From IMG/VR virus record IMGVR_UViG_3300025413_001239: a DNA stretch of 64,000 bases. The stretch is one strand, 5' to 3'. The stretch's first letter is position 1; each line of letters begins with the position of its first letter. Below are positions 98 through 40,731 of the stretch, piece after piece. The position numbers and the translations under genes are program-made. This stretch comes from a virus (Duplodnaviria; Caudoviricetes). Below the pieces are notes generated by a model that ran no database searches, had not been told where the DNA came from, and saw only the letters and a list, made by a program, of their open reading frames with translations.

Positions 98-922
98 ATG
101 GAACAAGTATTAGAAATTAAGGAGTTTACAAAAGACCTTTTAGGTGACACAGCCACTGTAAGGGCTAATTCAACTAGGGGTGAAGAAGTTATTAAAATTG
201 CACTTGACAAAATTGTTGTTAGGGATAATTTTAACGTTAGGCAAAATTATGGTAACTTGGAAGAATTAGCTTACTCAATGATTGAGAATGGTCAAGTAAT
301 GCCTGGTCATGTTGATGTTCTTGCCGATGGTCGTTTCGTTTTAACTGATGGACACAGAAGGTTTAAAGCCTTAAAACTATTGGCTGAAATGGGTCACGAA
401 CCTTTATTTAAGGCGATTGTGAACCCTAAAAAAATGACAGAAGAGCAAAGGATTCTTCAAGTATTTACTACGCAAGATAACAAGCCTTTAGAACCAAACG
501 AAGTTGCGGAACTAATTAACCGTTTAATTAATTTGGGGTACAAACAAACCGATGTTGCGAAACGTATTGGGCGTACAGGTGCATACGTTTCACAGATGCT
601 TAACTATGTTACTGAAAGTCCTTTGATTAAAGAAGAAGTTAAAGAAGGCAATATTACAGTTGCAGCTGTTTTGGATTTGCAAAAGAAGATACCCAATAAA
701 GAAGAAAGGGTTAAGGCAGTTAAGGATGCTGTTGCAAAGAAAAAAGAAGAAACGAAAGACGATAAGAAACCAACGCCAGTTTCAGCAAATGAAGTAATTG
801 GTAAAAAAGATAAGGGTGCTATTGCTTTTGAGATTGTGTGTTTAATTGAACAGGCTTATAGCGAAGAACTTGAAGGTGCTGATTTGAAAATGATGGTTAG
901 CATTATTAAGGGTTATCTTTAA
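98..922 (+). CDS. parB: ParB/RepB/Spo0J family protein (ParB N-terminal domain plus HTH)
   Basis: LTDGHRRFKAL arginine-patch motif; HTH-like GYKQTDVAKRIGRTGAYVSQML. Confidence 0.8.
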   Translation: MEQVLEIKEFTKDLLGDTATVRANSTRGEEVIKIALDKIVVRDNFNVRQNYGNLEELAYSMIENGQVMPGHVDVLADGRFVLTDGHRRFKALKLLAEMGHEPLFKAIVNPKKMTEEQRILQVFTTQDNKPLEPNEVAELINRLINLGYKQTDVAKRIGRTGAYVSQMLNYVTESPLIKEEVKEGNITVAAVLDLQKKIPNKEERVKAVKDAVAKKKEETKDDKKPTPVSANEVIGKKDKGAIAFEIVCLIEQAYSEELEGADLKMMVSIIKGYL

Positions 923-1073: not shown

Positions 1074-1918
1074 AGGTACACGAAAGTTTTAAGTTAGTTT
1101 CTAAGGCTATTAGCCACAAAGGGGAATCAGGTATTAAGGTAGAAATTCCTGCTATCTACGAAACTACAAATGAAGATGTGATTAAATTCAGTCACGTTAA
1201 CAGGTTAACTAAAATCAATGGAATTATTACTTTGGGTAATAGTCTTATTGAACTAGCCCACAATCTTAGGGATATAGTTGTTGCTAAGATTGGTGATGAT
1301 TTTTACTACATTGATGGACAGCATTTGGCTAAAGCCTTATTCAAATTGGGGTTGCCAATAAGGTTTAAATTGGTTTATTTAAACGATGAAGAAGAAGCCC
1401 TTAAATTCATTACTAAAATGAATAGTAGTGCTAGAAATTGGTCTTTGAAGCAGTACATTGAAAGTTATTCAAAGGTTAATAAAGACTTGGTTTATTTAAA
1501 CGAGTTAAATGCTCAAACAAGTGTTAGTTATAGTACATTAGGTATTGTGCTAACTAATCAATCAATGTCCTATGTTAAGAAATCAATAAAGGATGGTACT
1601 TTCAAAATAACCGAAAAGAAGGCAGCAAAAATAAGAGTTGATGTTGTGATTAACTTTTATCAAATTACGGGTGTAAAGGTATCTCAATATTGCACTCACG
1701 GACTAATTGACTTTATTAAGAACTTACCAAACGGCTTGAATGATTACTTAGCTAATGAAGGTAGATTTTTAGCTGTTGTGGAATGTGGTAAAATCGTGCC
1801 AAAAGTACCACTAGGGCAACGTGAAACCTATGTCGAATTATTTTCAAAGTGTTGGAATAAAAGCAAAGGTGGTAAATTTAAAGCCTTAAAAGAAAGGTTG
1901 GCAGAAATGGAAAATTAA
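1067..1918 (+). CDS. ParB/Srx-like N-terminal domain protein
   Basis: IVVAKIGDDFYYIDGQH motif and MNSSARNWSLKQYIESY, typical of phage ParB-like proteins; the Arg after DGQH is replaced by Leu. Confidence 0.6.
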   Translation: MTKVHESFKLVSKAISHKGESGIKVEIPAIYETTNEDVIKFSHVNRLTKINGIITLGNSLIELAHNLRDIVVAKIGDDFYYIDGQHLAKALFKLGLPIRFKLVYLNDEEEALKFITKMNSSARNWSLKQYIESYSKVNKDLVYLNELNAQTSVSYSTLGIVLTNQSMSYVKKSIKDGTFKITEKKAAKIRVDVVINFYQITGVKVSQYCTHGLIDFIKNLPNGLNDYLANEGRFLAVVECGKIVPKVPLGQRETYVELFSKCWNKSKGGKFKALKERLAEMEN

Positions 1919-1930
1919 TGGTTTAAATAA

Positions 1931-1961
1931 ATGGGAAAGCCTAAAAAACTTTCCCATTTTT
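1931..1961 (+). terminator. Intrinsic terminator
   Basis: ATGGGAAAG-loop-CTTTCCCAT followed by a T run. Confidence 0.75.
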
Positions 1962-1963
1962 AT

Positions 1964-2045
1964 AAAATAAATTTGCTCATATCAAATATACTAGTATATT
2001 TGCATTCTAATTACTTAACAATCTAAAAATTACAGATTATGACAA
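1964..2045 (+). repeat. 82-bp promoter/leader cassette, copy 2
   Basis: Near-identical to 992-1073. Confidence 0.9.
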
Positions 2046-2449
2046 TTTACGAACAAACGAAAAAAGATGCTTTAGAATTTATTCAGAATGGTGGTAAAGC
2101 ACAACAAGCTACTAATGAAAATCAAAGATTGGTTGCTGAGAATATTTTAGATTTTCTAAGGTTTAATGGCTTAAATGTTGTATTAGTGGCTGATGGTTGT
2201 GTTATTGATATTCACGTTCAAGTTTATAACGCATTTCAAGATTCAAAGCATAATGGGGTCGTGAGGGTATTCTACAAGTCTGCTAGTGATGTTATAAAAA
2301 ATAATAAGGTGCAGTATTTACCTTCGTTAATTACTAATAGTATTGTAGGTTATACAAGAGAATGGAAAGACTTTAACGGCAATGATGAGTTATTGGGTTT
2401 AATTAAACAAGAAATATTTGAGGTCTATAAATACAAAATTAAAAAATAA
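2039..2449 (+). CDS. Hypothetical early protein
   Basis: 136-aa ORF directly behind the promoter cassette. Confidence 0.7.
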   Translation: MTIYEQTKKDALEFIQNGGKAQQATNENQRLVAENILDFLRFNGLNVVLVADGCVIDIHVQVYNAFQDSKHNGVVRVFYKSASDVIKNNKVQYLPSLITNSIVGYTREWKDFNGNDELLGLIKQEIFEVYKYKIKK

Positions 2450-2502
2450 ATTTGCTCATATCAAAAATACTCATATCTTTGCATCACAATAAAACAGAAT
2501 AT

Positions 2503-2724
2503 ATGTTAAGTAGTTTAATCAAAAGAAATGCAGGTTCAAATGAACCAAAGTCGTTAAGGGTTGGTAATAGTACTTTTCCCGAAAATCAACCTAGCTTAAA
2601 TGAATCATTAAAGATTGGTAAAACTGTATTACCCAACAACCAACCTAGTTTAAATGAATGGTGTAAAGAATTTAAAGTCTCTAGTCGTGTTCCAAAATAT
2701 TCGCAATTTTCACATCACGGTTAA
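2503..2724 (+). CDS. Hypothetical early protein (73 aa)
   Basis: ATG at 2503 follows TATCTTTG and an ACAGAATATATG leader; the track start at 2452 lies inside the promoter; internal repeat NQPSLNE x2. Confidence 0.6.
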   Translation: MLSSLIKRNAGSNEPKSLRVGNSTFPENQPSLNESLKIGKTVLPNNQPSLNEWCKEFKVSSRVPKYSQFSHHG

Positions 2725-2774
2725 TATAACTGCATAACGGTTGAAGATTGGTGTAATGGTTAAGAAAACTGAAA

Positions 2775-2800
2775 GGGGTTACCGAAAGGTAACTCTTTTT
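2775..2800 (+). terminator. Intrinsic terminator
   Basis: GGGGTTACC-GAAA-GGTAACTC-TTTTT. Confidence 0.8.
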
Positions 2801-2876
2801 AGTTTAATTAAACAGGTAAAAATAAATTTGTTTATATCAAATTAAGTCCTTAACTTTGCAGTAAATAAAACAGATT

Positions 2877-3011
2877 ATGATAGAAACACTTTTAACTTTC
2901 TTTTTGATGGGTATGGTTTATATAAATGGGGTTAAGCCATTACAAGGCTTTAAGGATAAGCCTTTCAGCGAAAAAAGACGCATTGTCTTGTCATTAAGAG
3001 ATATGGATTAA
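2877..3011 (+). CDS. Small hypothetical protein (44 aa, hydrophobic N-terminus), not in ORF track
   Basis: MIETLLTFFLMGMVYINGVKPLQG... preceded by a TAACTTTG promoter and ACAGATTATG. Confidence 0.6.
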   Translation: MIETLLTFFLMGMVYINGVKPLQGFKDKPFSEKRRIVLSLRDMD

Positions 3012-3072
3012 AAATAAATTTGGCTGAATCAAATTAAGTCCTTAACTTTGCAGTAAATAAAACATACAGAAT

Positions 3073-3447
3073 ATGGCTAAGAAACTTGTTAGACTTACAA
3101 CCCATCAAATAATTGATGAAACGGTTGCGTTTTACGAAAAAAATATTCGAGCAAAACAAGACAATTGGTGCGAGTATCTAACTGATGATGGTAGAATGTG
3201 TGCCGTTGGTAGATGCTTAACCCCTAAGAGTTTGCAGATAGCCCAAACAGAATTTGGAGGTAAGGACTTTGGTAGCTTAAACTTGAATAGGATTAAGTTT
3301 AAGGCTCAATATACAGGTAAATGTGACGACTTTTGGTCATCACTACAAAGCCTACACGATAGCGAGAAATATTGGAATGGTAACCATTTAAGTTATATGG
3401 GTGAAATTAAGGTTAAAGCCTTAAAAGAACGATTTGCAAATATTTAA
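3073..3447 (+). CDS. Hypothetical early protein (Cys/His-containing)
   Basis: Own promoter cassette; CEYLTDDGRMCAVGRCL and LQSLHD motifs. Confidence 0.7.
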   Translation: MAKKLVRLTTHQIIDETVAFYEKNIRAKQDNWCEYLTDDGRMCAVGRCLTPKSLQIAQTEFGGKDFGSLNLNRIKFKAQYTGKCDDFWSSLQSLHDSEKYWNGNHLSYMGEIKVKALKERFANI

Positions 3448-3463
3448 TCAAAAATGCTTGTAT

Positions 3464-3553
3464 ATGAATAAAACAATTTGGATTGGTATATCAATTATTG
3501 TTTCAGTTGAATTAATTGGTATTCTTATGGGTTTAATTAAACTAATAAACTAA
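3464..3553 (+). CDS. Small membrane peptide (29 aa), not in ORF track
   Basis: MNKTIWIGISIIVSVELIGILMGLIKLIN; TAATG coupling to the next ORF. Confidence 0.45.
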   Translation: MNKTIWIGISIIVSVELIGILMGLIKLIN

Positions 3554-3690
3554 TGAAAATTTTAATGTGTTTGGCACTAGTAGTGCTGTTAACAAGTTGT
3601 TCATTCAAGAACTTACACCGAGTACATAAGGGAGATAAGATATATCGCCCACCTTGTAATTGTGGTCCACACTTTGGTCCGTTTAATTAA
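3553..3690 (+). CDS. Mini-lipoprotein (45 aa), not in ORF track
   Basis: MKILMCLALVVLLTSC: basic N-terminus, hydrophobic core and LTSC lipobox. Confidence 0.55.
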   Translation: MKILMCLALVVLLTSCSFKNLHRVHKGDKIYRPPCNCGPHFGPFN

Positions 3691-3753
3691 ACAGGTAAAA
3701 ATAAATTTGGTTGATTGAAATTAATTCCTTAATTTTGTTGAAAATTACAGATT

Positions 3754-4062
3754 ATGATTAAAGCAATTAAGATTGATGTTCAGAACAGAACAGTTACTGA
3801 GGTTGAAATTCAAAACAACTTGGAAGCCTATTATAAGGAGATAGGCTGCGATTTAGTTGAGTTTGTTAAGGTCGATGAGGTTAACGACCTTATGGTTGAT
3901 GAAGAGGGTTTATTCACAAAGAATCCATTCTTTATAATGGAAGGCTTATATCAACCAATGAGAGGCAACGGCTTAATAGTTGGGGTTGATTTTGAAGAGG
4001 GTGAAACCATAAGCACAACCCTTACAGTAGATGAAGTAAAAGCAAGAGTACACTTTGTATAG
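3754..4062 (+). CDS. DUF3846-like phage protein
   Basis: LEAYYKEIGCDLVE...LMVDEEGL...MRGNGLIVG pattern. Confidence 0.55.
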   Translation: MIKAIKIDVQNRTVTEVEIQNNLEAYYKEIGCDLVEFVKVDEVNDLMVDEEGLFTKNPFFIMEGLYQPMRGNGLIVGVDFEEGETISTTLTVDEVKARVHFV

Positions 4063-4114
4063 ACACTTTTGTACTTTTTTGATTTTTCGTTATATTTATT
4101 AATAAATAGATATA

Positions 4115-4759
4115 ATGAAAAATCAAAAATTAACAAGTGAAGAACGCAAAGCAAAAAAAATTGAAGCTAATAAAGCTTATCGAGAAGCTAATAAAATTAA
4201 ATTAACCGAAACAAATAAAGCAAAATACGAAGCTAATAAGGTTAAGATAGCTGAAAGAGCTAAAATTTATTATGAAGCTAATAAAGCTAAGATAATTGAA
4301 AAAAAACAATTATATATCCAACTTAATAAAGAAACTATTGCAGCTAAGAAAAAAGCTTATTATGAAGCTAATAAAGAAAAGTTAAATAAATTAACTAGAG
4401 ATTGGGTTAAAAATAAATTAGCTACCGACCCTTTATATAAATTGAAAGCGAATATAAGAACTTTAGTCGGGAACTCTATTCGTAGAAACGGTTATAAAAA
4501 GTTAAGTAAAACCCATTTAATTTTAGGTTGCACATTTGAACAATTCAAAGAACATTTAGAGTCACAATTTGAGCCGTGGATGAATTGGAATAACCGTGGG
4601 TTATATAATGGTACTGAAAATTATGGTTGGGATATTGACCACATTATACCAGTATCTAGCGGCTTAACTGAACAAGAAGTGGTTCAATTAAACCATTATA
4701 CCAACTTAAAACCTCTATGTAGTTATATAAACCGTGACGTTAAAATAAATAAGGTATAA
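4115..4759 (+). CDS. HNH homing endonuclease-like protein
   Basis: WDIDHIIP...LNHYTNLKPL C-terminus; Lys-rich YEANK repeats at the N-terminus. Confidence 0.75.
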   Translation: MKNQKLTSEERKAKKIEANKAYREANKIKLTETNKAKYEANKVKIAERAKIYYEANKAKIIEKKQLYIQLNKETIAAKKKAYYEANKEKLNKLTRDWVKNKLATDPLYKLKANIRTLVGNSIRRNGYKKLSKTHLILGCTFEQFKEHLESQFEPWMNWNNRGLYNGTENYGWDIDHIIPVSSGLTEQEVVQLNHYTNLKPLCSYINRDVKINKV

Positions 4760-4802
4760 CATACACTTTTGTGTACACAAGGACGTTCGGTGCATTGAAT
4801 AC

Positions 4803-4840
4803 AAATAACCCCCAACCGATTTGATTGGGGGTTTATTTAA
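4803..4840. terminator. Bidirectional terminator between convergent genes
   Basis: AAATAACCCCCAA-loop-TTGGGGGTTTATTT. Confidence 0.7.
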
Positions 4841-4845
4841 ACCTA

Positions 4846-4938
4846 TTAAGGTTCATTCATAAAGTCAGAAATGTTTAATGGTTCAATCAATTCCTCGCAT
4901 TGAATGAACAAGTCAAAATCATCATAATCCAAAAGCAT
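4846..4938 (-). CDS. Small acidic peptide (30 aa), not in ORF track
   Basis: MLLDYDDFDLFIQCEELIEPLNISDFMNEP, preceded by ACAGCTATG, a variant of the early leader. Confidence 0.4.
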   Translation of the reverse strand: MLLDYDDFDLFIQCEELIEPLNISDFMNEP

Positions 4939-4994
4939 AGCTGTTTATTTAAACGTAAAAAAATAGGGGTGCGATTGCTCACACCCCAGAGTTA

Positions 4995-5255
4995 TTATTT
5001 GATGGCTGCTTTCAATTCAGCCTTTAATCTCTTAGCATCTTCGCCCTTGAAGGTTGAAGCATTACCTAAGAAATAAATTACAATGCTTTCAGCTGTATCA
5101 TAGCCATAAGCATCGTTTTTGTCTTGTAGGGTGCATAAAGCATCTAAATAAGGCTTTGCACCAAAGTAAACCTTTGCACCCCAAACACGCTTAATTTCAC
5201 GTCCTATAACACATAAAGAACGAAAGTTAACTACTGCATTTTTTGTCTTTGTCAT
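4995..5255 (-). CDS. Conserved phage hypothetical protein (86 aa)
   Basis: Start after an ATTACAGTTTATG leader and TTTG-N19-TATCTTTG (5322-5292); AKPYLDAL...YGYD...IVIYFLGNASTFKGE pattern. Confidence 0.7.
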   Translation of the reverse strand: MTKTKNAVVNFRSLCVIGREIKRVWGAKVYFGAKPYLDALCTLQDKNDAYGYDTAESIVIYFLGNASTFKGEDAKRLKAELKAAIK

Positions 5256-5423
5256 AAACTGTAATTTTATTAAGTGATTAAGAAATTTCAGCAAAGATAA
5301 GTAGTTTATTTAAACCAACAAATTTATTTTATCCCTTTTTATAAACCTATTAACATAACTACAATAAGGGCGTATATTTATACGATTTTTTAAAAAGTTT
5401 TTGTTTATGTTATTTTACACCCT

Positions 5424-5500
5424 TATCTTTGCAATGTTATTATAACAGGACGACATAAAAAATCGGGAGGTGTACTCCACTATGCGCTTTATTTTTATAT
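5424..5500 (+). ncRNA. Putative ~65-75-nt small RNA, copy A (coordinates include the -7 promoter element)
   Basis: TTTG-N20-TATCTTTG promoter, no ORF, core ATCGGGAGGTGTACTCC (5462-5478) shared with copy B, T-rich end. Confidence 0.45.
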
Positions 5501-5552
5501 AACCATACATACGTTGGAATTTACAATATTATTCTAATACCGCCAAATAAAG

Positions 5553-5585
5553 TTATCCCCAAAATGATTTTTAAAATGTGGATAA
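5553..5585. promoter_or_regulatory. Inverted DnaA-box pair upstream of the DUF932 promoter
   Basis: TTATCCCCA (5553) and TGTGGATAA (5577), 24 bp start-to-start. Confidence 0.6.
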
Positions 5586-5667
5586 CTTTATTGCAGTTTA
5601 TTTAAACCATAACCTATCTTTGCTGAAATTTATTAACCGCTTCGAGAGAAGCACAATATTACAGATT

Positions 5668-6534
5668 ATGAAATATGTTAATTTAAAAGGTCAAAAATTA
5701 CAAAATGATGACGTGTTCCCAACAGTAGAAATTAAGTCATTTAGCGAGGCAATTAACCTCAAAACTAGGAAAGGTTATGATAATTTAGTTATCAGTAACG
5801 GCGAAGTAGTTAACGTTTGTAGTGATAGTTATGCACTACTTAAAAATGAAGACTTTTTTTTAAAGGTAGAAGAAAAGTTAATTGTTGACGCTGATGTAGA
5901 ATACACTAAAAGGAGTATAAACCGAAATAACCGTTCTTTTGCGGTTGATTACATTTTAAATGACGATAGGTATGATATTGTAATTAATAGCGGCAAAAAG
6001 GACGTTATTAAACCAATGCTTCGCTTTGTTAACTCTTATGATGGTAGTGCCAAAACAAAGGGTTCTTTTGGGTATTTTAGACAAGTTTGCACTAATGGTT
6101 TACACATTGCTGAAACAATGTTAAACTTTGATGTTAAACATAGGGGTGCAATAGCTGAAATAGTTCTCCCTAAGATGGATAACCTAATTTCAAATTTTAT
6201 GGAAAACGAATACTACACGTTAAAAAGTAAAGCTGAAACCCTTACAAATAGCAAAATTAGTGATGTAGCTAAATTTGTACAGGATATTTGTAAAAAAACC
6301 AATATCTTTAAATTTGAAAAAAGCGAAAAGAACCCCGAACCTTCAAAGTACGCTGAACAGGTAATAAACACAATTTTTAGTGAGGCAAATTACCTAAACG
6401 TTGTACCTAATTTGTGGCTGGGTTATAACTCATTTAATTCAATCCTTACCGATGGAACGTTTAGCAAAACATTCGAGAAAGAAACCGAATTTGATAACCT
6501 TATATTCAATAGGGTGCTTGAAATGGCAGGTTAA
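5668..6534 (+). CDS. DUF932 (DUF945) family protein
   Basis: FVNSYDGS...GYFRQVCTNG signature; ATG at 5668 follows the promoter and ACAGATTATG. Confidence 0.75.
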   Translation: MKYVNLKGQKLQNDDVFPTVEIKSFSEAINLKTRKGYDNLVISNGEVVNVCSDSYALLKNEDFFLKVEEKLIVDADVEYTKRSINRNNRSFAVDYILNDDRYDIVINSGKKDVIKPMLRFVNSYDGSAKTKGSFGYFRQVCTNGLHIAETMLNFDVKHRGAIAEIVLPKMDNLISNFMENEYYTLKSKAETLTNSKISDVAKFVQDICKKTNIFKFEKSEKNPEPSKYAEQVINTIFSEANYLNVVPNLWLGYNSFNSILTDGTFSKTFEKETEFDNLIFNRVLEMAG

Positions 6535-6555
6535 GTACTTAACCGCTTAAAAGTA

Positions 6556-6583
6556 AGGGTAACAGAAATGTTACCCTTTTTTT
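6556..6583 (+). terminator. Intrinsic terminator
   Basis: AGGGTAAC-AGAAAT-GTTACCCT followed by a T run. Confidence 0.8.
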
Positions 6584-6839
6584 ATGCCCTTAACTATCCA
6601 TGTACACTAATGTGTACCATACGTGTGAAAATAGCCGTTTTTAGCCCATTTTGAGCCGTTTATTACCAAAATAAGGTAATCATATTAACAGCTTTATTTT
6701 AAGCCAAATTTGAGCCTTAAAATCAATTCTTTGATTACAATAAACCTATTTTTGCACAATAAAGCTATTAACTTTATTATAAGCCTATTAACTTTATTAA
6801 CCACTTAACAAAACATAAAAAAATCTTATGTTAGTAAAA

Positions 6840-6989
6840 TGTGGATAATTTTTAGATGTTAATAACTATGTGGATAAAATGTGGATAAGTACTTAGTAAC
6901 ATTTGTGGATAACTTATGTGGATAAAATGTGAATAACTTTTTTACTTATCCACATTTGTTAATAACGTATGCGGATAAAATGTGGATAA
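6840..6989. repeat. Array of DnaA boxes (oriC-like)
   Basis: Perfect TTATCCACA/TGTGGATAA at 6840, 6869, 6880, 6904, 6917, 6946 and 6981; near matches at 6928 (TGTGAATAA), 6970 (TGCGGATAA), 6857 and 6957 (TGTTAATAA). Confidence 0.85.
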
Positions 6990-7044
6990 CTTTTTTTGGT
7001 GGTATGAAAAAAAAGTTGTACCTTGCATCCGCATAGGCACATAT

Positions 7045-7127
7045 ATAAAAAAATAAAAGGCAGGTCGGAGTACACCTCCCGATGTCCTTTAGAACTATCG
7101 TCTTGTTATATTAACACTGCAAAGATA
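7045..7127 (-). ncRNA. Putative small RNA, copy B (inverted relative to copy A)
   Basis: Minus-strand TTTG-N20-TATCTTTG (7151-7120), the same GTTAwTATAACARGACGA 5' part, core at 7083-7067 and a U-rich end. Confidence 0.45.
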
Positions 7128-7156
7128 TAGCAGCAAAATGACATGGACAAAAAAAG

Positions 7157-7189
7157 TTATCCACATAAGTAAAATAAAAATGTGGATAA
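7157..7189. promoter_or_regulatory. Inverted DnaA-box pair between divergent promoters
   Basis: TTATCCACA (7157) and TGTGGATAA (7181), 24 bp start-to-start as at 5553/5577. Confidence 0.65.
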
Positions 7190-7276
7190 CTTTATCTTGT
7201 TTAATTAAACCAATATCAAAAATTTACCCTATCTTTGCAGTCTTATTAACCGCCGAAAGGCACTAAATTACAGATT

Positions 7277-8740: not shown

Positions 8741-9103
8741 TTATTTTTTAAAATTTTTGAGGTCCATATGTTCATATATTGATTTTATTAAATCAATAAA
8801 ATCTAAATATGGTAAGTCATTTTTTAATAAGTTAATTTTTGTTCTAACTAAAACAACGTTATCTTTTGTATACCCAGCATTTGAATTAATTCTATCAATT
8901 GAGAATGCCTTATCATTGATTCTATAATCGGACAAATCATCTTCAGTTAAAGTATCCAATAATTCTTTACCAGTATATTTACATTTACAGTTTTGTTGTT
9001 CATATAATTCTTTAATAAAATCTGTTGTTAAGTCAAAGGCTATACCTTTTTTTATTGCTCGTGCACGTGCTGCGGCAACTCTAATTTTAATTAAGTTATT
9101 CAT
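8741..9103 (-). CDS. HNH-like endonuclease domain protein
   Basis: CKYTG...FSIDRINSNAGYTKDNVVLV..INLLK. Confidence 0.6.
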   Translation of the reverse strand: MNNLIKIRVAAARARAIKKGIAFDLTTDFIKELYEQQNCKCKYTGKELLDTLTEDDLSDYRINDKAFSIDRINSNAGYTKDNVVLVRTKINLLKNDLPYLDFIDLIKSIYEHMDLKNFKK

Positions 9104-9158
9104 TCGCCATTTTAATGCCTTTTCTTCTCTTAATTTTCGTTCATCTTCTGGTAAAGAA

Positions 9159-9758
9159 TTATAAATTTCTTTTTTTTCTAATGAAATACATTTTTTTGTT
9201 ATGAAGAAATTCTCTTAGTTCATTATCTTGTAATGAATTTATCTTATAGTAGAATTTTTTTTCTGGGTCAACGTTAGGGTATGTTATGTATCTTAATACG
9301 TTATATATAGCATCTTTTGTGACGTTATATTGCTCAGCGAGTTCTTTAGTTGATATGTTAGTATCATTGAATTTTTCTCTGATATCCTTAACGTTATCTT
9401 CATTTAATTTTTGGGCCCAACTTCTTGGTCTGAGTCCAGTTTGTATTGCGTGTGCGATATTTTCTTGTCTGGTCATCCATTCAAGGTTCTTAAAGTAGTT
9501 ATTGGTTTTTACACCATCGATATGGTTTACGGTTGTTTTACCTTCTACGTTTTCGATGAATAGGGTTGCGACTATTCTATGAACTTTAATGTTTTTGTAT
9601 CTACAAAACTTATCGCTATAAAGATTGGGTCTTACATAACCATCATCGTTAAGGATTTTCTTAAGTTCTTTTTTAGTCTTAGCGTTTCTAAGATTACCCA
9701 AATTAGAGAATTCATACTTTGTTAAGTCTGGGTGTTTTTTCCAAATTTCTTCTTCCAT
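9159..9758 (-). CDS. NUMOD4-HNH homing endonuclease with C-terminal HTH
   Basis: YEFSNLGNLR; VHRIVATLFI...VNHIDGVKTNN...NLEW; STKELAEQYNV. Confidence 0.85.
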   Translation of the reverse strand: MEEEIWKKHPDLTKYEFSNLGNLRNAKTKKELKKILNDDGYVRPNLYSDKFCRYKNIKVHRIVATLFIENVEGKTTVNHIDGVKTNNYFKNLEWMTRQENIAHAIQTGLRPRSWAQKLNEDNVKDIREKFNDTNISTKELAEQYNVTKDAIYNVLRYITYPNVDPEKKFYYKINSLQDNELREFLHNKKMYFIRKKRNL

Positions 9759-13539: not shown

Positions 13540-13601
13540 TTAATTAAATTTATTATAAATATTTGATTTATTTGAATAAAGTCGGTATATTTGCTGAAAA
13601 T

Positions 13602-14654
13602 ATGTATTTTATGGGTTTAGCAGGATTATTATTATCGTTAAGTGGTTTTTTTGGTTTTTTTGTATCGTTGAAGTTTATTTTGATAAATCACTTTAGGATA
13701 CCTAAAAGTATAGCTAAGTTGCTTTATAAGCAAATCAGCAATTCTAATTTTAAATTTGTTATGGAAGAGGAGTTGGTGTTTGACAAAAAGGACCCAAGCA
13801 TTTACAAATCTTTAGTTAAGTTAGATGGTGTATATGTGTTATTTGATAGGTCTGAGAGGCTATTTACAGCTGGTTGGCAATCTAAAGAAGGTCTTACCGA
13901 TATATACTTTTTTAGGTGGAATACTCAAAGGGTTAGGCATATTTTAGATGCTATTAGTAAGATAAAAAAAGAAGTAAGTGTTTATGCTATGTCACCGTAT
14001 GGTAATTCGCATATTGGCACTGTTGATTGTAAGGAATTTAGTATTGTCTTGGATAAGGAAATATATGAGGATATTGAAAACGATGTTTCTAGGGTAATAA
14101 AAGGTGAGTTATCTAAGACGAGTGCTTTATTGTATGGGCCGCCAGGTAACGGCAAATCACGTTTCATTCGTTACATATCACAAAAGTACGAGTTACCAAT
14201 ATATACGTTTTATTTTAATCCAGACTATACTAATTTGGATATACTTGAAGCATTTGCTATGATACCAAAGCATTCGATAGTTTTATTTGAGGATTTTGAT
14301 AATTACTTTGATGATAGGACATGTCTTATTAAAAGTGAGAATGTTAAGTTTACGTTTGATGTGCTTTTGAATTGCTTGGATGGTGTTTATAATGATTATA
14401 AGAAGACTATTTTCTTTATGACAGTGAATGACTTGGGTAAGGTTTCTGATGCGCTTAAAAAGCGTCCTAGCAGGTTTAAATACGTAAGAGAATTTAAGAA
14501 TCCAAGTACCGAATTAAAGTTGGAATTATTAGGCAATGAGGAATTAGCTGAGGGACTTGTTGATATTAGTCTTGACCAGACTTTCAAGATTAAGGATTTT
14601 ATTTCGATGAAGGGGTTGATAACGCTTAATGATGCAAAGGAATTAATAAATTAA
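13602..14654 (+). CDS. BCS1-like AAA+ ATPase with N-terminal TM segment
   Basis: LLYGPPGNGKS Walker A, LFEDFD Walker B, LLNCLDG and ALKKRPSR; ATG 13602 follows a TTTG-N20-TATATTTG promoter. Confidence 0.75.
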   Translation: MYFMGLAGLLLSLSGFFGFFVSLKFILINHFRIPKSIAKLLYKQISNSNFKFVMEEELVFDKKDPSIYKSLVKLDGVYVLFDRSERLFTAGWQSKEGLTDIYFFRWNTQRVRHILDAISKIKKEVSVYAMSPYGNSHIGTVDCKEFSIVLDKEIYEDIENDVSRVIKGELSKTSALLYGPPGNGKSRFIRYISQKYELPIYTFYFNPDYTNLDILEAFAMIPKHSIVLFEDFDNYFDDRTCLIKSENVKFTFDVLLNCLDGVYNDYKKTIFFMTVNDLGKVSDALKKRPSRFKYVREFKNPSTELKLELLGNEELAEGLVDISLDQTFKIKDFISMKGLITLNDAKELIN

Positions 14655-15239: not shown

Positions 15240-15779
15240 TTACTTTTTACGTTTTTTTCTTTTCTTTTTAAATTTTGGCTTAACGTATTTTCGTTGAACA
15301 TTTTCTTTTATGGTTAGGCCGTAGGGTGGTTTTTTAAGTATTGATAAATCCAGCGACCATTGATACTTTGAGCGTTCTTTATAGAGTTCAAATGATTCTG
15401 CAACGTGTTGAACGACTTGTTTATGGTCCCAATTATTAACGGTTTCGAGTTGTTTAAAGACTTCTGGTTGTTTACCCATTGCGTTAGCTCTACCTATGTG
15501 TTTAACGAGGTGACAAATCACACAAAGTGAAGTTAATTTAGTTAATTTTTGTGTAAAATTAACTGTATCATATGCCCAAACTTCATGACATTCAACATTA
15601 TGCTTGTAACCTTGTTCCAACCCAGTTTTACCACATATCTCACACTTGTTATTTGCTAAATTATAGGTTAATTTTCTAATCCTATCCCAATCTTTTTTTG
15701 AAACCATTGTCCTAACAGATGAAAACCAACAACTCTTAGGTATTAATTCAACAATTAATTTCGGTATATATTTACACAT
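15240..15779 (-). CDS. HNH-like Zn-binding phage protein (full-length copy)
   Basis: CEICG...ECHEVW.YD...LCVICHLVKH. Confidence 0.7.
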   Translation of the reverse strand: MCKYIPKLIVELIPKSCWFSSVRTMVSKKDWDRIRKLTYNLANNKCEICGKTGLEQGYKHNVECHEVWAYDTVNFTQKLTKLTSLCVICHLVKHIGRANAMGKQPEVFKQLETVNNWDHKQVVQHVAESFELYKERSKYQWSLDLSILKKPPYGLTIKENVQRKYVKPKFKKKRKKRKK

Positions 15780-22665: not shown

Positions 22666-23937
22666 TTATTTTTTTGATTTTGTTTTATCAGATTTGATAG
22701 CGATTTCATTCTTATCACTATCAAAGGATATTTTAATTATTTCACCTTCCTTAACGTTACCGCTTAGTATTTCATCGGCAACTTGGTCTTCAACATAGCG
22801 TTGAATAGTTCTTGCTAGTGGTCTAGCACCGTAGTTTTCATCGTAGCCTTCTTTAGCTAAGAACTCAACAGCTTCTTTTTCAATCTCAAGTTTATAACCA
22901 ACTTCTTCAAGTCTTTTTTGAACTTCAGCAACTTCATTATAAATGATTTTGTTGATATCCTCTGGCTTAAGACTATTAAACACGATTGATTCGTCAATAC
23001 GGTTTAAGAATTCTGGTTTAAATTTCTTCTTTAGAGCTTTTTCAATGATGCTACGATTTCTAGCATCTTCACCAGCGATGGTTGTTGCGGTTTCGAATCC
23101 GATTGTTTTTCCAAAGGTATTTAATTCCTTAACACCAACATTAGATGTTAATATAATTAAAGCGTTTTTGAAATTAACTTTACGGCCAAGACCATCTGTT
23201 AATTGTCCTTCATCAAATAGTTGAAGCATAATGTTAAATACGTCATCATGCGCTTTTTCGATTTCATCGAATAGAATTACACAGTGTGGTTTACGTCTAA
23301 CTTTTTCAGTTAGTTGACCACCTTGGTCGTAACCAACATAACCTGGTGGTGGACCAATTAATCGTGATACTGAGTGTTTCTCCATGTATTCACTCATATC
23401 AACCTTTATAAGTGCTTCAACGTCACCATAAACGTGCTCAGCGAGTAGTTTAGCTAAATACGTGTTATGGCTTAAGATACCATTAGTGTAATATCTTCGA
23501 TTAGAACCTTCTTTTAATTCAAGGTCATACATAACCTCCTCATAACCTAAATTAATAACCTCAATAACTTTCGATTCAATTAATTTACCATCATTATCTG
23601 ATACCATTACAAATGACCCAATTTTTAAGTCTTTAACAAATACTTCAGTTAACCCAATTGGTTCAAATGTGGTTTCATTATATTCAGTAACAAATATAAT
23701 ATGATTATCAGCACATTTTAGTTCTTTACCATCAGATAATTTAAGTTGATATACTTCGTAAGGTATTGTTTCATGTAATGCTTCTATATCAACAAATCCA
23801 TCGTCAGTTAAGACTTCGTACTCGCTAATTTTGGTTGTTTTGGTAATCTTTTTTAAAGATTCTAATTCATGTTTATCAAATAATAAAATATTATCTGACC
23901 CATCAACTCTTTTTTTAATTTCTTCTATTCTACCCAT
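22666..23937 (-). CDS. clpC: ClpC C-terminal part: 158-aa C-intein plus the second AAA module and C-terminus
   Basis: Intein blocks CADNH, MYDLEL and GILSHN|T, then IKVDMSEYMEKHSVSRLIGPPPGYVGY, ILFDEIEKAH, IILTSNVG, PEFLNRID and YGARPL. Confidence 0.9.
   Translation of the reverse strand: MGRIEEIKKRVDGSDNILLFDKHELESLKKITKTTKISEYEVLTDDGFVDIEALHETIPYEVYQLKLSDGKELKCADNHIIFVTEYNETTFEPIGLTEVFVKDLKIGSFVMVSDNDGKLIESKVIEVINLGYEEVMYDLELKEGSNRRYYTNGILSHNTYLAKLLAEHVYGDVEALIKVDMSEYMEKHSVSRLIGPPPGYVGYDQGGQLTEKVRRKPHCVILFDEIEKAHDDVFNIMLQLFDEGQLTDGLGRKVNFKNALIILTSNVGVKELNTFGKTIGFETATTIAGEDARNRSIIEKALKKKFKPEFLNRIDESIVFNSLKPEDINKIIYNEVAEVQKRLEEVGYKLEIEKEAVEFLAKEGYDENYGARPLARTIQRYVEDQVADEILSGNVKEGEIIKISFDSDKNEIAIKSDKTKSKK
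23464..23937 (-). mobile_element. Split intein, C-fragment (158 aa)
   Basis: Ends His-Asn at 23464; Thr+1 at 23463-23461. Confidence 0.85.
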
Positions 23938-24069
23938 TTTATTTTATTTTTAAATTAAGATTCGTAAATTGGCATATATCTTTTCTAAAAGTCGTTTTAT
24001 GTAATGCTAAAGAATAACTTTTAATTACATAAATTAAATCATTTATATTATATATACTTTTTCCATTTT

Positions 24070-24282
24070 TTATAAATTTATTCTATTGATTAATTGAATA
24101 TATGAGTTAATACTTAATTTTTTAGATAGATATTTTTTTATTATTTCTGGATTATTGTATTTTTTTGGATTATCCAAAAACTCAAAAAGAATTTCTAGAA
24201 ATAAATCTTTTTCAATATCACTTTCACTACAACAACTCATAAAATCACCAAATGATGGGATAAAAGTATTAATATCAGTCAT
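24070..24282 (-). CDS. Hypothetical protein between the clpC halves
   Basis: 70-aa ORF overlapping the upstream small ORF. Confidence 0.45.
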   Translation of the reverse strand: MTDINTFIPSFGDFMSCCSESDIEKDLFLEILFEFLDNPKKYNNPEIIKKYLSKKLSINSYIQLINRINL

Positions 24283-24430
24283 TATTATTATTTATATGTT
24301 TTAGTATTTCTTTAATAACATCTACCCATTGATTGGTTTGAGTTATATGTTTAATTTTGTTTTCTGAAAAAGAAGATACTTGTCTAAGACCTTCTTTATC
24401 TGTAATAATAATCTCCATTTTATTTTCCAT
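24275..24430 (-). CDS. Hypothetical protein between the clpC halves
   Basis: MENKMEIIITDKEG..., start follows the endonuclease stop. Confidence 0.4.
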   Translation of the reverse strand: MENKMEIIITDKEGLRQVSSFSENKIKHITQTNQWVDVIKEILKHINNNND

Positions 24431-24452
24431 ATTATTTTTTTTTACAAATATA

Positions 24453-25673
24453 CTACTTTTTATTAAGGAAAGCAATACATTTATTTATTATTTCTTGTTT
24501 ATTTCCCCATCGATATTCTGAATCCCAAATTACTAACACTTTATAACCTTCTTCAAGTGCAACATCTAATTTTCGTTTATCTTTATCCCACATTTCTTGT
24601 GCTGTAATGGTTTTTCTAAACGGATGTGGATAATCATCAGCTTTATATTTATTTGGATTTCCATGAAACATATCACCATGAAATTCAATTATCCGTTTAT
24701 TTTTAATATCGGTAAAATCATATAACCAAACACCACCTTCTTTTTTAGTTAATTTAAACTCACTATTATGTGTTGCGAAATGAACTTTATCCCTATCACT
24801 AATATCATATGTTTCTAAAATTTTATAGAACAAATCTTGAGATATTTTAGAATATCCAATAACTATATTACCATTGGTTAATAACGATTTTAACCATTTA
24901 TTTTGTCTTTCAGTAAAACGTTTTTTACCTTCTTCTTCACCATACTTTGCAATGCATTTTTCAAGACTAAAAGTTGACTGATGTTCTGATACATTTTGTT
25001 TTGCATCTTCTTTTGAATAACCTTTATTAACCCAATATTCTATATTGGATGGTATTAATCTAGTTTCAAAATCAACTTGTTTCGCAGCTTCAGTTTGGTT
25101 TTTACTAATTATATCTTTCGCCTCGTTTTCAGAATATCCTTTATTAACCCAGAAATCAGAATTTGTTGGTGTTAAACAAATACGTTTTATATCTTCATCA
25201 GAGTAACCTTTTTCTTTTAACATTTTTTTAGATTTACCATGATAAGTTTTAACACATTTAGATGATTTTTGTTGTTGTTTAGAAATTTCATTAATAGCTT
25301 CTTCTTTAGTGTAACCTTTATTAACCCAATATTCCTCACATAAACGATTCCTTTGTTTTAATTCTTCATTACGTTTATCCAATTCAACCAAAGCGTCTTT
25401 ATCATTCCAACCACGTTCAATCCAATATCCTAATTCTCCCCATTTTTTAGTTTTAAAACCATAATTTTTAACCAACCAACCACGCATTAACGATAACGAA
25501 ACAACACCTTCTTGTTCTTGTAATTTAATCATTAATGATTCCATTTTTTTTTTAATCGTTTCATTATCGTAGTGTATGTTTTTATCTAATTTTAAAACAT
25601 GGTCTTTAAACGTTTCTAAATCTGGAAACACTTCATTCACTTCTTTAATTCCTTTACTTGTTTTTATCTTCAT
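24453..25673 (-). CDS. Vsr-like (EDxHD-type) free-standing homing endonuclease
   Basis: LYDF...IIEFHGDMFHGNP...DKRK...GYKVLVIWDSE; four (Y/F)WxxKG(Y/W)-type repeats. Confidence 0.7.
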   Translation of the reverse strand: MKIKTSKGIKEVNEVFPDLETFKDHVLKLDKNIHYDNETIKKKMESLMIKLQEQEGVVSLSLMRGWLVKNYGFKTKKWGELGYWIERGWNDKDALVELDKRNEELKQRNRLCEEYWVNKGYTKEEAINEISKQQQKSSKCVKTYHGKSKKMLKEKGYSDEDIKRICLTPTNSDFWVNKGYSENEAKDIISKNQTEAAKQVDFETRLIPSNIEYWVNKGYSKEDAKQNVSEHQSTFSLEKCIAKYGEEEGKKRFTERQNKWLKSLLTNGNIVIGYSKISQDLFYKILETYDISDRDKVHFATHNSEFKLTKKEGGVWLYDFTDIKNKRIIEFHGDMFHGNPNKYKADDYPHPFRKTITAQEMWDKDKRKLDVALEEGYKVLVIWDSEYRWGNKQEIINKCIAFLNKK

Positions 25674-25719
25674 GACATCTATTTTATAATAAATATCATG
25701 AAGTTTTAAAAAGTTCGGA

Positions 25720-27531
25720 CTAATTGGTGTCGGGTACGATATTTTTTATATTAATAATTTTAATCTCACCAGTTAGTTTATTTCTAACTGTTATTTCTGT
25801 ATCACCACAAATACACTTACCAACACCTGTTGGACCTAAAAAGATGAATGTACCAACTGGTTTATTTTTAGGCTTAATACCAATACGATTTCTCTTGATG
25901 GCTTTAACAACTTTAGCAACAGCTTCGTCTTGACCTATGACTTTACCAGTTAACTCCTTATCAAGGGTAAGTAATTTTTTACTTTCTTGGGTTGAGATTT
26001 TAGTTAATGGGATACCAGTCATCATCGATACAACTTCGGATATTTGTTCAACACCAACAATTGTTTCTCTTTTTTCAAGCTTAGTAGTCCAAGCTTTCAT
26101 AGCGGCTTCTAGTTGCTCATTGATTTTGTTTTGTTCATCCCTAATTTTTGCAGCGTCTTCGTATTTTTGTTTGCTAACAACTTCTTTTTTCCTGATGATA
26201 AGTTTGTTTTTCTTATCTTCAAGGTCCTTAATATTCTGTGGTTTTTCAAGACTAATATTAGTTGCAGCACCAGCTTCATCCATAACATCTATGGCCTTAT
26301 CTGGCATTGACCTTTCCATGATGTATCTATCAGAAAGCTTCACACATTCTTCAATAGCTTCGTCAGTATAAACAACGTTATGGTGTTTTTCATACTTTTC
26401 TTTAATATTTTGAAGAATAACCTTAGTTTCTTCGAGGGTTGGTTCCTCAACAAGAACTTGTTGAAATCTTCTTGTTAAAGCACCATCTTTTTCGATGTGC
26501 TCACGATATTCATCAAGGGTTGTTGCGCCGATGATTTGTATTTCACCACGAGCCAATGCTGGTTTAAAGATGTTACTAGCATCTAAGGCACCAGATGCGT
26601 TACCAGCACCAACGATTGTATGTAATTCATCGATGAATAAAATGATATCTGTGTTTGCTTTACATTCTTCAAGAACGGCTTTCATTCTTTCTTCAAATTG
26701 ACCACGATACTTGGTGCCAGCAACAAGAGAAGCTAATTCAAGTGAATAAATCTTTTTATTAGCTATAATTCTAGGTGCGTTACCTTCTTTAATAAGAAGT
26801 GCAAGCCCTTCAACGATTGAGGATTTACCAACACCTGGTTCACCGATGATAACTGGGTTGTTTTTCTTTCTACGAGAAAGAATTTGTGAAATCCTCTTGA
26901 TTTCGTTAGTACGCCCAACTACTGGGTCGATTTCATTTTTTTCTACTGCTTTGCTGATATCTCTACAGAAATTATCCAACACTGGTGTTTTACCACCATC
27001 AGATTTTCTTTTAGATTTTCTAAAACGTTCTGAATCGTTTGTAAAATCATCTTGTACATCTTCATCGTCCATCGGACCGTTTTTAAAGTTTTCTTTACTT
27101 TGCATTATCATTTTTTTAAATGTTACATAATTGACACCGAATTCATTTAATATATCAGAAATCGGTGTTTTAAAGGCTAAAATAGACAATAATAAGTGTC
27201 TTGTGTCGATTACTTTATCATTAAGTTTCTCACATTCACTATCTATTATTTTAAATACATGTTTAGCATCTTCAGAGAAGATTATATTATTACTAAATTT
27301 GACTAGTACTCTTGGTGTTAAATCGCTTCTTAGGTAATCATAAACAGCGATTTGTAATGCACTAATATCAATTTTATTCTTTGTTAGAATTTCTACACAC
27401 TCATTATCGTTATCGTTTAATAGTGATATAACTAAGTGTTCTGGTTTAACTTTATTATCATCAAAGCTTTTAGCTTCTTCATTAGCTTTATTAATAATAA
27501 ATTTAACCTTAGGATATATTTCTCTATTCAT
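25720..27531 (-). CDS. clpC: ClpC N-terminal part (Clp-N, AAA1, UVR-like coiled coil, start of AAA2) plus a 31-aa N-intein
   Basis: [49 protein letters not shown] and [11 protein letters not shown]|CICGDTEI. Confidence 0.92.
25723..25815 (-). mobile_element. Split intein, N-fragment (31 aa)
   Basis: Cys1 directly after the Walker A Lys; block [11 protein letters not shown]; stop codon after 31 residues. Confidence 0.8.
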
Positions 27532-38955: not shown

Positions 38956-40731
38956 ATGCTTACAAAACAAGAAATATTGTTTGAATATGGGAAATGTTTA
39001 TCAAATCCAATCTATGCTATCGAAACATACTTAGAAACATTCGATAAAACTAGAGAGGGATTTGTTCAATTTAAGTTATTCCCAAGACAAAAAGAAATTA
39101 TTCAATGTTACCAAAAACATAGGTTTAATCTTGTAACTAAACCAAGACAAGCTGGGGTTTCTACAACTACAGCTGCTTATATGTCAATTAAAGTTGGTTT
39201 TGCTGATGAAGATAATCCAGAGGCTATTTTGATTGTTGCAAATAAACAAGAGTTGGCTTTTGAATTCTTAGCTAAAATTAAGGACTTTTTATCACAGTTA
39301 CCTAGATGGGTTTGGGGCTCTGAGTATTACGGTACTAATAAAGCTGAATCTAAGGATATATTCAGTATAAATTCAAAGGGTGAAATTAAATTACCTAATG
39401 GTAGTCGTGTTAAAGCGGTTGCCACATCTAAGGATGCACTTCGTGGTTTTACTCCTACTTATCTTATTATGGATGAGGCTGCATATATTGATAATGGTGC
39501 TGTAGTTTTTGGTGCTGCGTTAACCGCTTTAGGTACTGGTGGTAAAGCAACACTTATTTCAACACCTAACGGTATGGATAAATTGTACTATGAAACATAT
39601 GCACAATCTAAAGCTGGTAAAAATAACTTTAATATCGTTGAAATGAAATGGTATGAGGATTTAAGGTATAATAAGGACCTTAGATGGCTTAAAGATGATA
39701 ATGTTGAATATGAAATTGAATACACATTTGATTCATATAAATTCATGATTTCTCAAGGTTATAAACCAACATCTTCATGGTATGAGGAAATGTGTCGTGG
39801 TATGAATAACGATGCGAGAATGATTGCTCAAGAACTTGATGTATCCTTTATTGGTTCTGGGGGTAATGTAATCAGTGAGGAAGATATTCAAGCACAAGAA
39901 TTACTTAACGTTAAGGACCCAGAATTCTATGGTAATGATAAGGATATATGGATATGGAAAAAACCAGAAGAAGGACATCAGTATATAATGGGTGTCGATG
40001 TATCTAGAGGTGACGGTGAGGACTCATCAACAATGATAATTTATGATTTCACAGCTATGGAACAAGTTGTTGAATATCAAGGTAAAATACGACCAGACCT
40101 TTTAGCACAATTGGTGGAAGAATATGGTGATTTATACAAGGCTTATACTGTCGTGGATATTACTGGTGGTATGGGTGTAACAACTGTTTTAAAATTAATT
40201 GAATTTGATTACAAGCGTTTGCATTACGATACACCTAATGGTAAGATACTTTCAAATAAGAAAAAGCAAATGGAAGCTTATATGAAAGATGATAAAACAC
40301 CAGGTCTACAAGTATCCACCATACGTCTTGCAATGATTGCAAATTTTGAAGAGAAGATTAGGAACAACATCGTTAAAATTAGGTCTATAAGGCTTATTAA
40401 CGAGATGAAAACGTTTGTGTATAAGAATGGTCGTCCAGACCACATGGATGGTTACCACGATGATTTAATTATGGCTTTGGCCATGTGTCTTTGGGTTCTT
40501 GAACATTCATTTAAAAACTTAGAAAAACTTGAAAAACAAACTAAGGCTATGCTTAATAGTTGGGTTGGTAGTTCTAGTAGTGATAATGCTGATGTTAAAG
40601 GAAGCGGATTTGTTTCACAAGCATCAAGAAATAAGGCGGCAATGCCAAAACCTAAATTTAGCCCAGTAGTTGCAAAGAATATGCAAGACCCAACAGGTCA
40701 ATACATGTGGTTATTTAGTGGTACAAAATAA
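38956..40731 (+). CDS. terL: Terminase large subunit (T4 gp17-like)
   Basis: KPRQAGVSTT, LIMDEAA, ISTPNG, MGVDVSRG and HDDLIMA nuclease motifs. Confidence 0.93.
   Translation: MLTKQEILFEYGKCLSNPIYAIETYLETFDKTREGFVQFKLFPRQKEIIQCYQKHRFNLVTKPRQAGVSTTTAAYMSIKVGFADEDNPEAILIVANKQELAFEFLAKIKDFLSQLPRWVWGSEYYGTNKAESKDIFSINSKGEIKLPNGSRVKAVATSKDALRGFTPTYLIMDEAAYIDNGAVVFGAALTALGTGGKATLISTPNGMDKLYYETYAQSKAGKNNFNIVEMKWYEDLRYNKDLRWLKDDNVEYEIEYTFDSYKFMISQGYKPTSSWYEEMCRGMNNDARMIAQELDVSFIGSGGNVISEEDIQAQELLNVKDPEFYGNDKDIWIWKKPEEGHQYIMGVDVSRGDGEDSSTMIIYDFTAMEQVVEYQGKIRPDLLAQLVEEYGDLYKAYTVVDITGGMGVTTVLKLIEFDYKRLHYDTPNGKILSNKKKQMEAYMKDDKTPGLQVSTIRLAMIANFEEKIRNNIVKIRSIRLINEMKTFVYKNGRPDHMDGYHDDLIMALAMCLWVLEHSFKNLEKLEKQTKAMLNSWVGSSSSDNADVKGSGFVSQASRNKAAMPKPKFSPVVAKNMQDPTGQYMWLFSGTK

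Follow-up and report, generated by a model that had tools for sequence, protein, structure and literature searches.

A dense array of predicted DnaA boxes in an early-region cassette of a tailed phage

An intergenic region of a tailed phage contains a dense array of DnaA boxes, arranged in tandem units next to a small-RNA gene. The array is one module of a cassette repeated in the early region, which runs from the terminator of a gene through a palindrome, a variable spacer, the box array, a box-gated promoter (only in some copies), a convergent small-RNA gene and a box-pair hairpin to the promoter of the next gene. The boxes very probably bind the DnaA protein of the host, and we tentatively propose that the array could be a DnaA-loaded regulatory or roadblock platform in an early control cassette, its loading more probably affecting transcription than replication.

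The phage and the context of the array

The window, i.e., the whole stretch of DNA that was analysed (64,000 nt), is contained in a virus record of 148,708 bp from IMG/VR (G000), with an estimated completeness of ca. 44 %. The source is a genuine tailed phage, with genes in the window for a large terminase (38956-40731), a major head protein (49563-51503) and a thymidylate synthase. The terminase, TerL, has 235 relatives, among them complete genomes of 362 kb with terminal repeats, and no match by DNA similarity was found among GenBank phages. Promoters of the Bacteroidota type (TTTG, 18-21 nt, TAnnTTTG) occur 19 times in the window, against 4.5 expected, and are densest around the array; 40 of the 47 present in the whole record fall in one plus-strand block around it, suggesting that this block is an early region read by the host polymerase. 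From the promoter motifs only, the host would be a member of the Bacteroidota.

The two genes that flank the region served as synteny anchors (Table 1). The downstream gene codes for a protein of 195 aa that was modeled confidently by AlphaFold2 (pLDDT 88), with no informative structural match in PDB or in the AFDB clusters. Just downstream of the cassette region, on the minus strand (window 8741-9758), there are two genes of the HNH or endonuclease VII type, which may be homing endonucleases adding to local shuffling. Elsewhere in the window, a Lon-like ATP-dependent protease is apparently split (22666-27531, minus strand): the ORF at 25720-27531 corresponds to positions 5-510 of the phrog_4871 profile and that at 22666-23937 to positions 510-761, while an ORF of 406 aa between both parts (24453-25673) may be an inserted element. 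The thymidylate synthase (807 aa, 28301-30724, plus strand) contains its ThyA halves in residues 3-210 and 592-665, ca. 350 residues apart; a similar segment to this insert is present in entries for ribonucleotide reductase, which suggests a possible intein or inserted domain.

The array is identical, base for base and within the same gap, in L286, L287 and L288, which are assemblies from three other samples. Additionally, the junction between a box and a promoter described below did not match any of 185,579 bacterial species genomes, and it was present in five other phage contigs; G001, L273 and L282-L285 all carry it. These results indicate that the array is neither an artefact nor host contamination, the latter having been judged unlikely in the preliminary description; its flanks are phage cassettes in the four assemblies. 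For the same reasons, the bacteria-free junction and the phage-cassette flanks, capture of a host oriC or a chimeric join can be ruled out.

Table 1. Features of the early region around the box array (coordinates of the window)
Feature	Coordinates	Strand	Remarks
ParB/Spo0J-family protein, 274 aa	98..922	+	Pfam HTH_ParB and KorB; DGHRRF arginine patch, HTH
Inverted box pair (TTATCCCCA, 15 nt, TGTGGATAA)	5553..5585		Small-RNA copy A on one side, DUF932 promoter on the other; hairpin of -15.1 kcal/mol
DUF932 gene	5578..6534	+	Pfam PF06067, phrog_21518; upstream synteny anchor
Intrinsic terminator of the DUF932 gene	6555..6583	+	10-bp stem plus T-run
GTACAC-N4-GTGTAC palindrome	6602..6617		Marks the left border of the cassette; a conserved leader segment comes next
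AT-rich variable tract	6725..6835		20-bp direct repeats at 6759-6798; candidate unwinding element of the preliminary description
DnaA-box array	6802..6995	-	Tandem 53-bp units U0 (decayed), U1 (partial), U2 and U3
Stretch of the preliminary description	6840..6989	-	7 perfect boxes, 2 one-mismatch boxes, 2 weak sites
Bacteroidota-type promoter (TTTG, 20 nt, TACCTTGC)	6995..7026	+	Starts 5 bp past the last box
Small-RNA gene, copy B	7040..7151	-	Promoter at 7151-7120, ORF-less transcript of ca. 75 nt, T-run
Perfect inverted box pair	7153..7193		Hairpin with a 14-bp stem, -18.4 kcal/mol, z -7.6
Promoter of gene 7277	7199..7237	+	GTTTAATTAAAC palindrome at the -33 position, TATCTTTG as -7 box
Early protein, 195 aa	7277..7864	+	172 homologues, family-wide; downstream synteny anchor

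Units, promoters and hairpins of the cassette

Our recount agrees with the seven perfect and four near-consensus boxes in 150 bp counted previously. The perfect boxes (TTATCCACA) are at 6840, 6869, 6880, 6904, 6917 and 6981 on the minus strand and at 6946 on the plus strand; those with one mismatch are at 6928 (TTATTCACA) and 6970 (TTATCCGCA), and two weak sites with two mismatches (TGTTAATAA) are at 6857 and 6957. The three direct pairs spaced by 11 bp (6869/6880, 6917/6928 and 6970/6981) and the single inverted box (6946) are also as claimed. Nine sites with up to one mismatch in 150 bp compare with two at most in 30 simulated genomes (Poisson probability of ca. 1e-16 per window). The whole record contains 16 perfect boxes, against five copies of the reversed control word; four of the 16 are intragenic, at a background-like level, and the other 12 lie in three intergenic places of the early region, including boxes beyond the preliminary list at 7157 (plus) and 7181 (minus), at 5577 (minus), and at 29148 and 29173 in G000.

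The array consists of ca. 3.8 tandem copies of a 53-bp unit (period 53, 2.8 copies and 80 % match with Tandem Repeats Finder), each of which combines a box in inverted orientation with three direct boxes at gaps of 2-4 bp, and probably grew by tandem duplication of this unit. The order within the unit is slot a (the inverted box), 2 bp, slot b, 3-4 bp, slot c, 2 bp and slot d, slots c and d being the 11-bp tandem pair; closely spaced boxes in the same direction are thus separated by 2 bp (c-d) and 3-4 bp (b-c). Slot b is TGTTAATAA in most units and a perfect box in U2, and the sequence of this weak site does not vary between this phage, the two L290 modules and L293, suggesting that it is a maintained low-affinity site and not a product of decay. 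One-mismatch variants in module positions affect mainly position 5 (five cases) and position 3 (three cases), which correspond to N and W, respectively, in the relaxed consensus TTWTNCACA; TTTTCCACA, responsible for two of the three changes in position 3, fits W, whereas TTGTCCACA does not. The boxes are very probably host DnaA sites, given their exact match to the consensus, the gaps of 2-4 bp, the variants at degenerate positions and the presence of parS in the same lineage. In E. coli, ChIP-seq shows that DnaA binds in vivo almost only to box pairs 2-3 bp apart (PMC11317965), and the gaps between the direct boxes of the phage come close to this. The arrangement of one inverted and three direct boxes would seat DnaA dimers or oligomers in a head-to-tail manner.

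The gap of 740 bp reported as gene-free corresponds to 6535-7276 (742 bp) and contains no ORF longer than 42 aa, but two promoters, the small-RNA gene and a hairpin are situated in it. The 6995 promoter, whose -7 box (TACCTTGC) is non-consensus, is convergent with the small-RNA gene, which is read towards the array; the box at 7157 is situated 5 bp before the -33 element of this gene and its terminator (7082-7065) is weak. A junction formed by TGTGGATAA-CTTTW-TTTG or TTG, 20-21 nt and a -7 box was found at 5553 (minus), 5577 (plus), 6981 (plus) and 7157 (minus), so that four early promoters (6995, small RNA, DUF932 and the leftward one at 5553) have a box 5 bp from the -33 element. To our knowledge, a fixed 5-bp junction of a DnaA box to a Bacteroidota -33 element has not been described. 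In the pair at 5553..5585, each arm continues into CTTTA and from there into the -33 element (TTTG or TTG) of one of two diverging promoters, and the arms of 7153..7193 are the upstream elements of the leftward small-RNA promoter and of the rightward promoter of gene 7277. Each inverted pair thus constitutes back-to-back upstream elements of diverging promoters.

The inverted pairs can also form strong hairpins; at 29148/29173 in G000, a stem of 15 bp, a UUCG loop and a T-run make up a textbook terminator. In L287, a phage 97 % identical, positions 1467-1499 (equivalent to 7157-7189 of the window) show a symmetric double substitution, TTTTCCACA … TGTGGAAAA, which is compatible with the hairpin as well as with the relaxed consensus of DnaA. 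Compensatory and wobble changes are present in the stem of the box pair of a paralogous G007 cassette, and the pair of G001 has a non-compensatory T-T at position 5. These changes suggest that the pairs are under both structural and sequence constraint. An RNA hairpin as the sole cause of the boxes was ruled out by the direct repeats and by the non-compensatory variant of G001.

The small RNAs belong to a promoter-driven, ORF-less family of ca. 75 nt with a shared core (…CGGGAGGTGTACTCC…) plus a T-run; a search in Rfam gave no family match within the gap. In this phage there are copies at 7040-7151 (minus) and 5400-5500 (plus) of the window and at ca. 29190-29290 (minus) of G000; elsewhere, copies are found at 15570, 16200, 16690 and 17370 of L132, G001 having four, and also in L290 and L293. 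Their terminators are weak, and the transcript runs towards DnaA boxes in all three copies of this phage and in one of the four of G001. The distance from the 3′ end of the small RNA to the array or box pair beyond it is 20-130 nt for the three copies here, the two modules of L290, L293 and one of the G001 copies, and the majority direction of the boxes relative to the small RNA is the same in this phage, in the two modules of L290 and in L293. The GTACAC-N4-GTGTAC palindrome and its leader are likewise present in both L290 modules and in L293. Separately, the palindrome GTTTAWTTAAAC has 16 strand matches in 11 sites within 1373-7210 of the window, against 0.23 expected; several copies are at the -33 position of early promoters, resembling operators for a phage repressor, and the KorB-like ParB is a candidate binder.

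Turnover among relatives and the presence of parS

We compared 27 loci sharing the DUF932 gene together with close homologues of the 195-aa gene. These relatives were recovered with an alignment-based search, and single-protein locus searches with the two flanking genes gave no match. Most relatives have no boxes at all, and G001/L272 and L273 have a single box with the same promoter junction. L290, from a 91 % lineage, has two units separated by an insert of 85 bp and, after the 195-aa gene, a second complete module with nine perfect boxes, which makes ca. 20 sites in modules 1.3 kb apart; the second module contains an array without a promoter at its last box. L293, from a 72 % lineage, has nothing before the 195-aa gene and ca. 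1.5 units after it. Regulatory cassettes behave in this way, with duplication in L290, relocation in L293 and reduction to one box in G001. Only scattered boxes are present in ten large relatives, two of which are complete genomes, and no array was found in the complete 362-kb relatives, which encode PolB and a DnaB-like helicase. We found no phage DnaA in searches for its AAA+ domain in the 149-kb fragment (ca. 44 % complete) and in relatives, and for its domain IV in the fragment; the AAA ATPase at 13563-14654 was discarded as a DnaA or a DnaC-like loader because its matches were to generic AAA proteins only. An exact tandem box pair occurs in 43 other phage contigs, which have no protein in common with this phage.

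A second element of bacterial origin regions occurs in this lineage. A canonical parS (TGTTCCACGTGAAACA; TGTTNCACGTGAAACA) is situated at 26853-26868 in G000, in an early intergenic region ca. 11 kb before the start of the window, with ca. 3e-4 copies expected by chance per record. The insert of 85 bp between the L290 units (4687-4760) carries three GTGTCATG repeats and a parS site, so that a perfect parS (TGTTTCACGTGAAACA, 4737-4752) lies inside the first L290 array; L293 has a degenerate parS beside the array (5828-5843), and G003 contains two palindromic parS copies, at 89503 and 89541, 38 bp apart. The co-occurrence of parS and DnaA boxes in the same cassettes makes it very unlikely that the identity of the 9-mer with the DnaA box is due to chance, and leaves room for an interaction of these phages with host proteins of chromosome maintenance. 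The ParB-family protein encoded at 98..922, which matched TIGR00180 (parB_part) with an E value of 3.6e-13, below the curated cut-off, is a possible partner of the canonical parS sites of the lineage. The GTTTAWTTAAAC palindromes were rejected as parS sites, because they are not canonical and the consensus site is elsewhere (26853 in G000). Additionally, ca. 280 bp upstream of this parS (26540-26580), the box-like words TGTGGTAAA, GTGGGTAAA and TGTGGTAAA appear in tandem with a spacing of ca. 10-11 bp, and may be a decayed or variant box array.

Candidate functions and comparison with known systems

From sequence, we infer binding of DnaA and an effect on promoters and elongation. DnaA bound to the array could contact or occlude RNA polymerase at the 6995 promoter, whose -33 element lies 5 bp past the last box. 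With this junction also in use at three more early promoters, among them that of the small RNA, expression of the sense/antisense small-RNA unit and of early genes nearby would in this way respond to the level of host DnaA. A DnaA roadblock, a mode of termination cited in PMC11317965, could keep the strong, weakly terminated small-RNA transcript from entering the upstream gene on which it converges; as a side effect, DnaA would be sequestered on the many copies of the phage genome. Since the second module of L290 lacks a box-gated promoter, control of a promoter cannot be the only role of the array. Further points run counter to a platform of this kind: the -7 box of the 6995 promoter departs from the consensus, the 11 sites seem above what a promoter or a roadblock needs, and the inverted pairs act in part as RNA or DNA hairpins.

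The preliminary description proposed instead an origin dependent on host DnaA or a datA-like sink. We consider the origin rather unlikely. In such an origin, possibly assisted by transcription, DnaA would oligomerise on the array and melt the adjacent AT-rich DNA; transcripts of the small RNA or from the promoter could aid opening or priming, as in oriF and oriG of T4, in T7 and in lambda, and the origin might have an accessory role in lytic growth or, with ParB and parS, be used in a plasmid-like carrier state. The dense, oriC-like cluster with gaps of 2-4 bp is in agreement with this, as are bacterial clusters with the same grammar, such as an intergenic one of a Chryseobacterium MAG with three direct boxes and one inverted; tandem pairs and tandem triplets with such spacing are each present in more than 120 species of bacteria. 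With respect to the AT-rich tract, the direct boxes are oriented as in the left half of E. coli oriC, which places the tract on the expected side; also, a strong promoter is directed towards the array, and the lineage has a phage ParB and canonical parS sites, one of them perfect and within the L290 array. Beyond box density, however, there is no positive support for an origin. Neither cumulative GC nor AT skew has an inflection at the array, although transcription direction can dominate the skew of phages and the GC skew climbs steadily through the array, tracking gene direction. We found no TAG/GAT DnaA-trio repeat beside the array (at least three units of the 3′-GAT-5′ type within ca. 16 bp of the proximal box, in a strand geometry that we take to be the one deduced from E. 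coli oriC). A looser rule, (NAN)3, published for the basal unwinding system (PMC8287927), is satisfied here by an A-run only, and also by 44 % of random genome positions. The AT-rich flank is not exceptional, its least stable window being only within the 5-6 % of genome windows of lowest stability, and it is not conserved: other DNA takes its place in L290, and in L293 the AT-rich tract and the boxes have exchanged sides. Two modules 1.3 kb apart, as in L290, would be odd for an origin, no gene for DnaA or its domain IV was found in the searches described above, and the complete relatives replicate with no array and have their own PolB and DnaB-like helicase. This last argument is weak, since T4-type origins are multiple, dispensable and poorly conserved, and the present phage family may likewise use several.

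It is also conceivable, if improbable, that the array modulates the DnaA of the host, as a sink similar to datA or to the DnaA-box clusters (DBCs) of Bacillus subtilis or as an exchanger similar to DARS, titrating or converting DnaA while phage genomes multiply and thereby shutting off or deregulating host initiation. The genome would offer many sites of high-affinity type in the early region (11 in the array, more nearby, ca. 20 in L290), the fast change in the number of units fits selection on dosage, and the opposed box beside boxes in the same direction recalls the DARS core (PMC6868365), although the a-b gap is 2 bp and that in DARS is 5 bp; box clusters outside oriC restrain initiation in B. 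subtilis (PMC3245932). Nevertheless, a sink needs neither fixed promoter junctions nor a constant place beside a small-RNA gene, and would bring no clear gain to a large lytic phage. Quite improbable, in turn, is that the 9-mer has nothing to do with DnaA and is bound by a transcription factor of the phage or of its host, or is the homogenised stem of shuffling terminator-and-promoter cassettes similar to the PeSLs of T4, matching the box by coincidence. The inverted pairs are stable hairpins, up to a textbook terminator, with pairing preserved by compensatory changes, the cassettes are repeated and shuffled, and some chance identities are expected among the ca. 250,000 windows scanned. But hairpins cannot account for direct tandem boxes, the spacing and the variant positions fit DnaA rules, and the stem sequence is kept in lineages whose intergenic DNA is otherwise unalignable; in addition, canonical parS is found within the same modules and no candidate phage binder was found.

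Compared with oriC and the basal unwinding system (PMC8287927), the phage array shares the consensus boxes, the neighbours in the same direction 2-4 bp apart, the mix of strong and weak sites and the AT-rich neighbour, but it lacks a trio repeat, a standout unwinding element and a skew switch, is not conserved in relatives, is duplicated in one of them, and lies between convergent promoters of the early region. The datA, DARS1 and DARS2 loci of E. coli and the DBCs of B. subtilis are non-origin clusters of high affinity that regulate neighbouring genes and DnaA availability (PMC3245932, PMC6868365). Their hallmark, several predicted high-affinity boxes beside promoters and genes, is present here, and the phage unit shares the grammar of DARS, apart from the spacing of the opposed pair; unlike all of these, the phage element is phage-borne and tandemly amplified, and it has no identifiable partner site for IHF or Fis, proteins for which we know of no Bacteroidota motif. 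As for promoters and roadblocks, the DnaA regulon of E. coli includes the dnaA, nrdAB and mioC promoters and termination at asnC and guaB (PMC11317965), and DnaA stimulates lambda pR and activation of ori-lambda. The phage resembles these cases in having a box directly upstream of core promoter elements and boxes in the path of transcripts, although the known ones use one or two boxes and the phage array has 11 sites.

Among virulent phages, the published case that comes closest is the set of DnaA boxes of the injection-stop (iss) region of T5, with eight paired boxes in the early DNA of first-step transfer, which its author judged unrelated to replication (bioRxiv 10.1101/866236). Both are non-coding early regions rich in repeats and palindromes, with close box pairs and a weak variant, TTATTAACA. 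However, T5 has its boxes in inverted-repeat blocks within the terminal repeat, and all T5-like phages retain them, whereas the array is ca. 32 kb from TerL, the syntenic position in the complete relatives of 362 kb is at a long distance from either genome end, and the array is lineage-specific, absent from most relatives and tied to promoters and a small RNA. The overall organization also recalls the PeSLs of T4-type phages, which Arbiol, Comeau and Krisch reportedly described in 2010 as modules of an early promoter plus a stem-loop that shuffle small early genes. The cassettes analysed here are likewise repeated modules of a terminator hairpin and an early promoter, flanking single small genes of a hyperplastic early region and subject to duplication and relocation, but their hairpin stems are DnaA boxes and they add a small-RNA gene and an array of direct repeats. 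The tandem-unit architecture, the promoter junction, the linkage to a small RNA and the co-occurrence with parS are new.

More broadly, jumbo phages of freshwater Bacteroidota might have built, within their early control cassettes, mimics of the host origin region (arrays expanding by duplication of the 53-bp unit, parS and ParB) that capture the initiator and perhaps ParB or condensin, with the arrays acting as an evolvable sponge or exchanger of DnaA or as a newborn origin; we find this idea somewhat doubtful. If it were true, the intermediates (no boxes, one box, two units, four units and duplicated modules) would still be visible in metagenomes. In any case, this cluster warns that motif density alone is insufficient to annotate oriC-like box clusters of phages as origins. 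The co-occurrence of parS and ParB suggests a wider use of host origin-region proteins by jumbo phages, and close relatives, with their naturally graded arrays, provide ready-made constructs for relating the number and grammar of DnaA sites to function. DnaA is the main readout of the replication and growth state of a bacterium: if the early promoters and the small-RNA unit are wired to it, the phage would have a direct sensor of host physiology, and if the array titrates or converts DnaA, the phage would also be able to act on the replication of its host.
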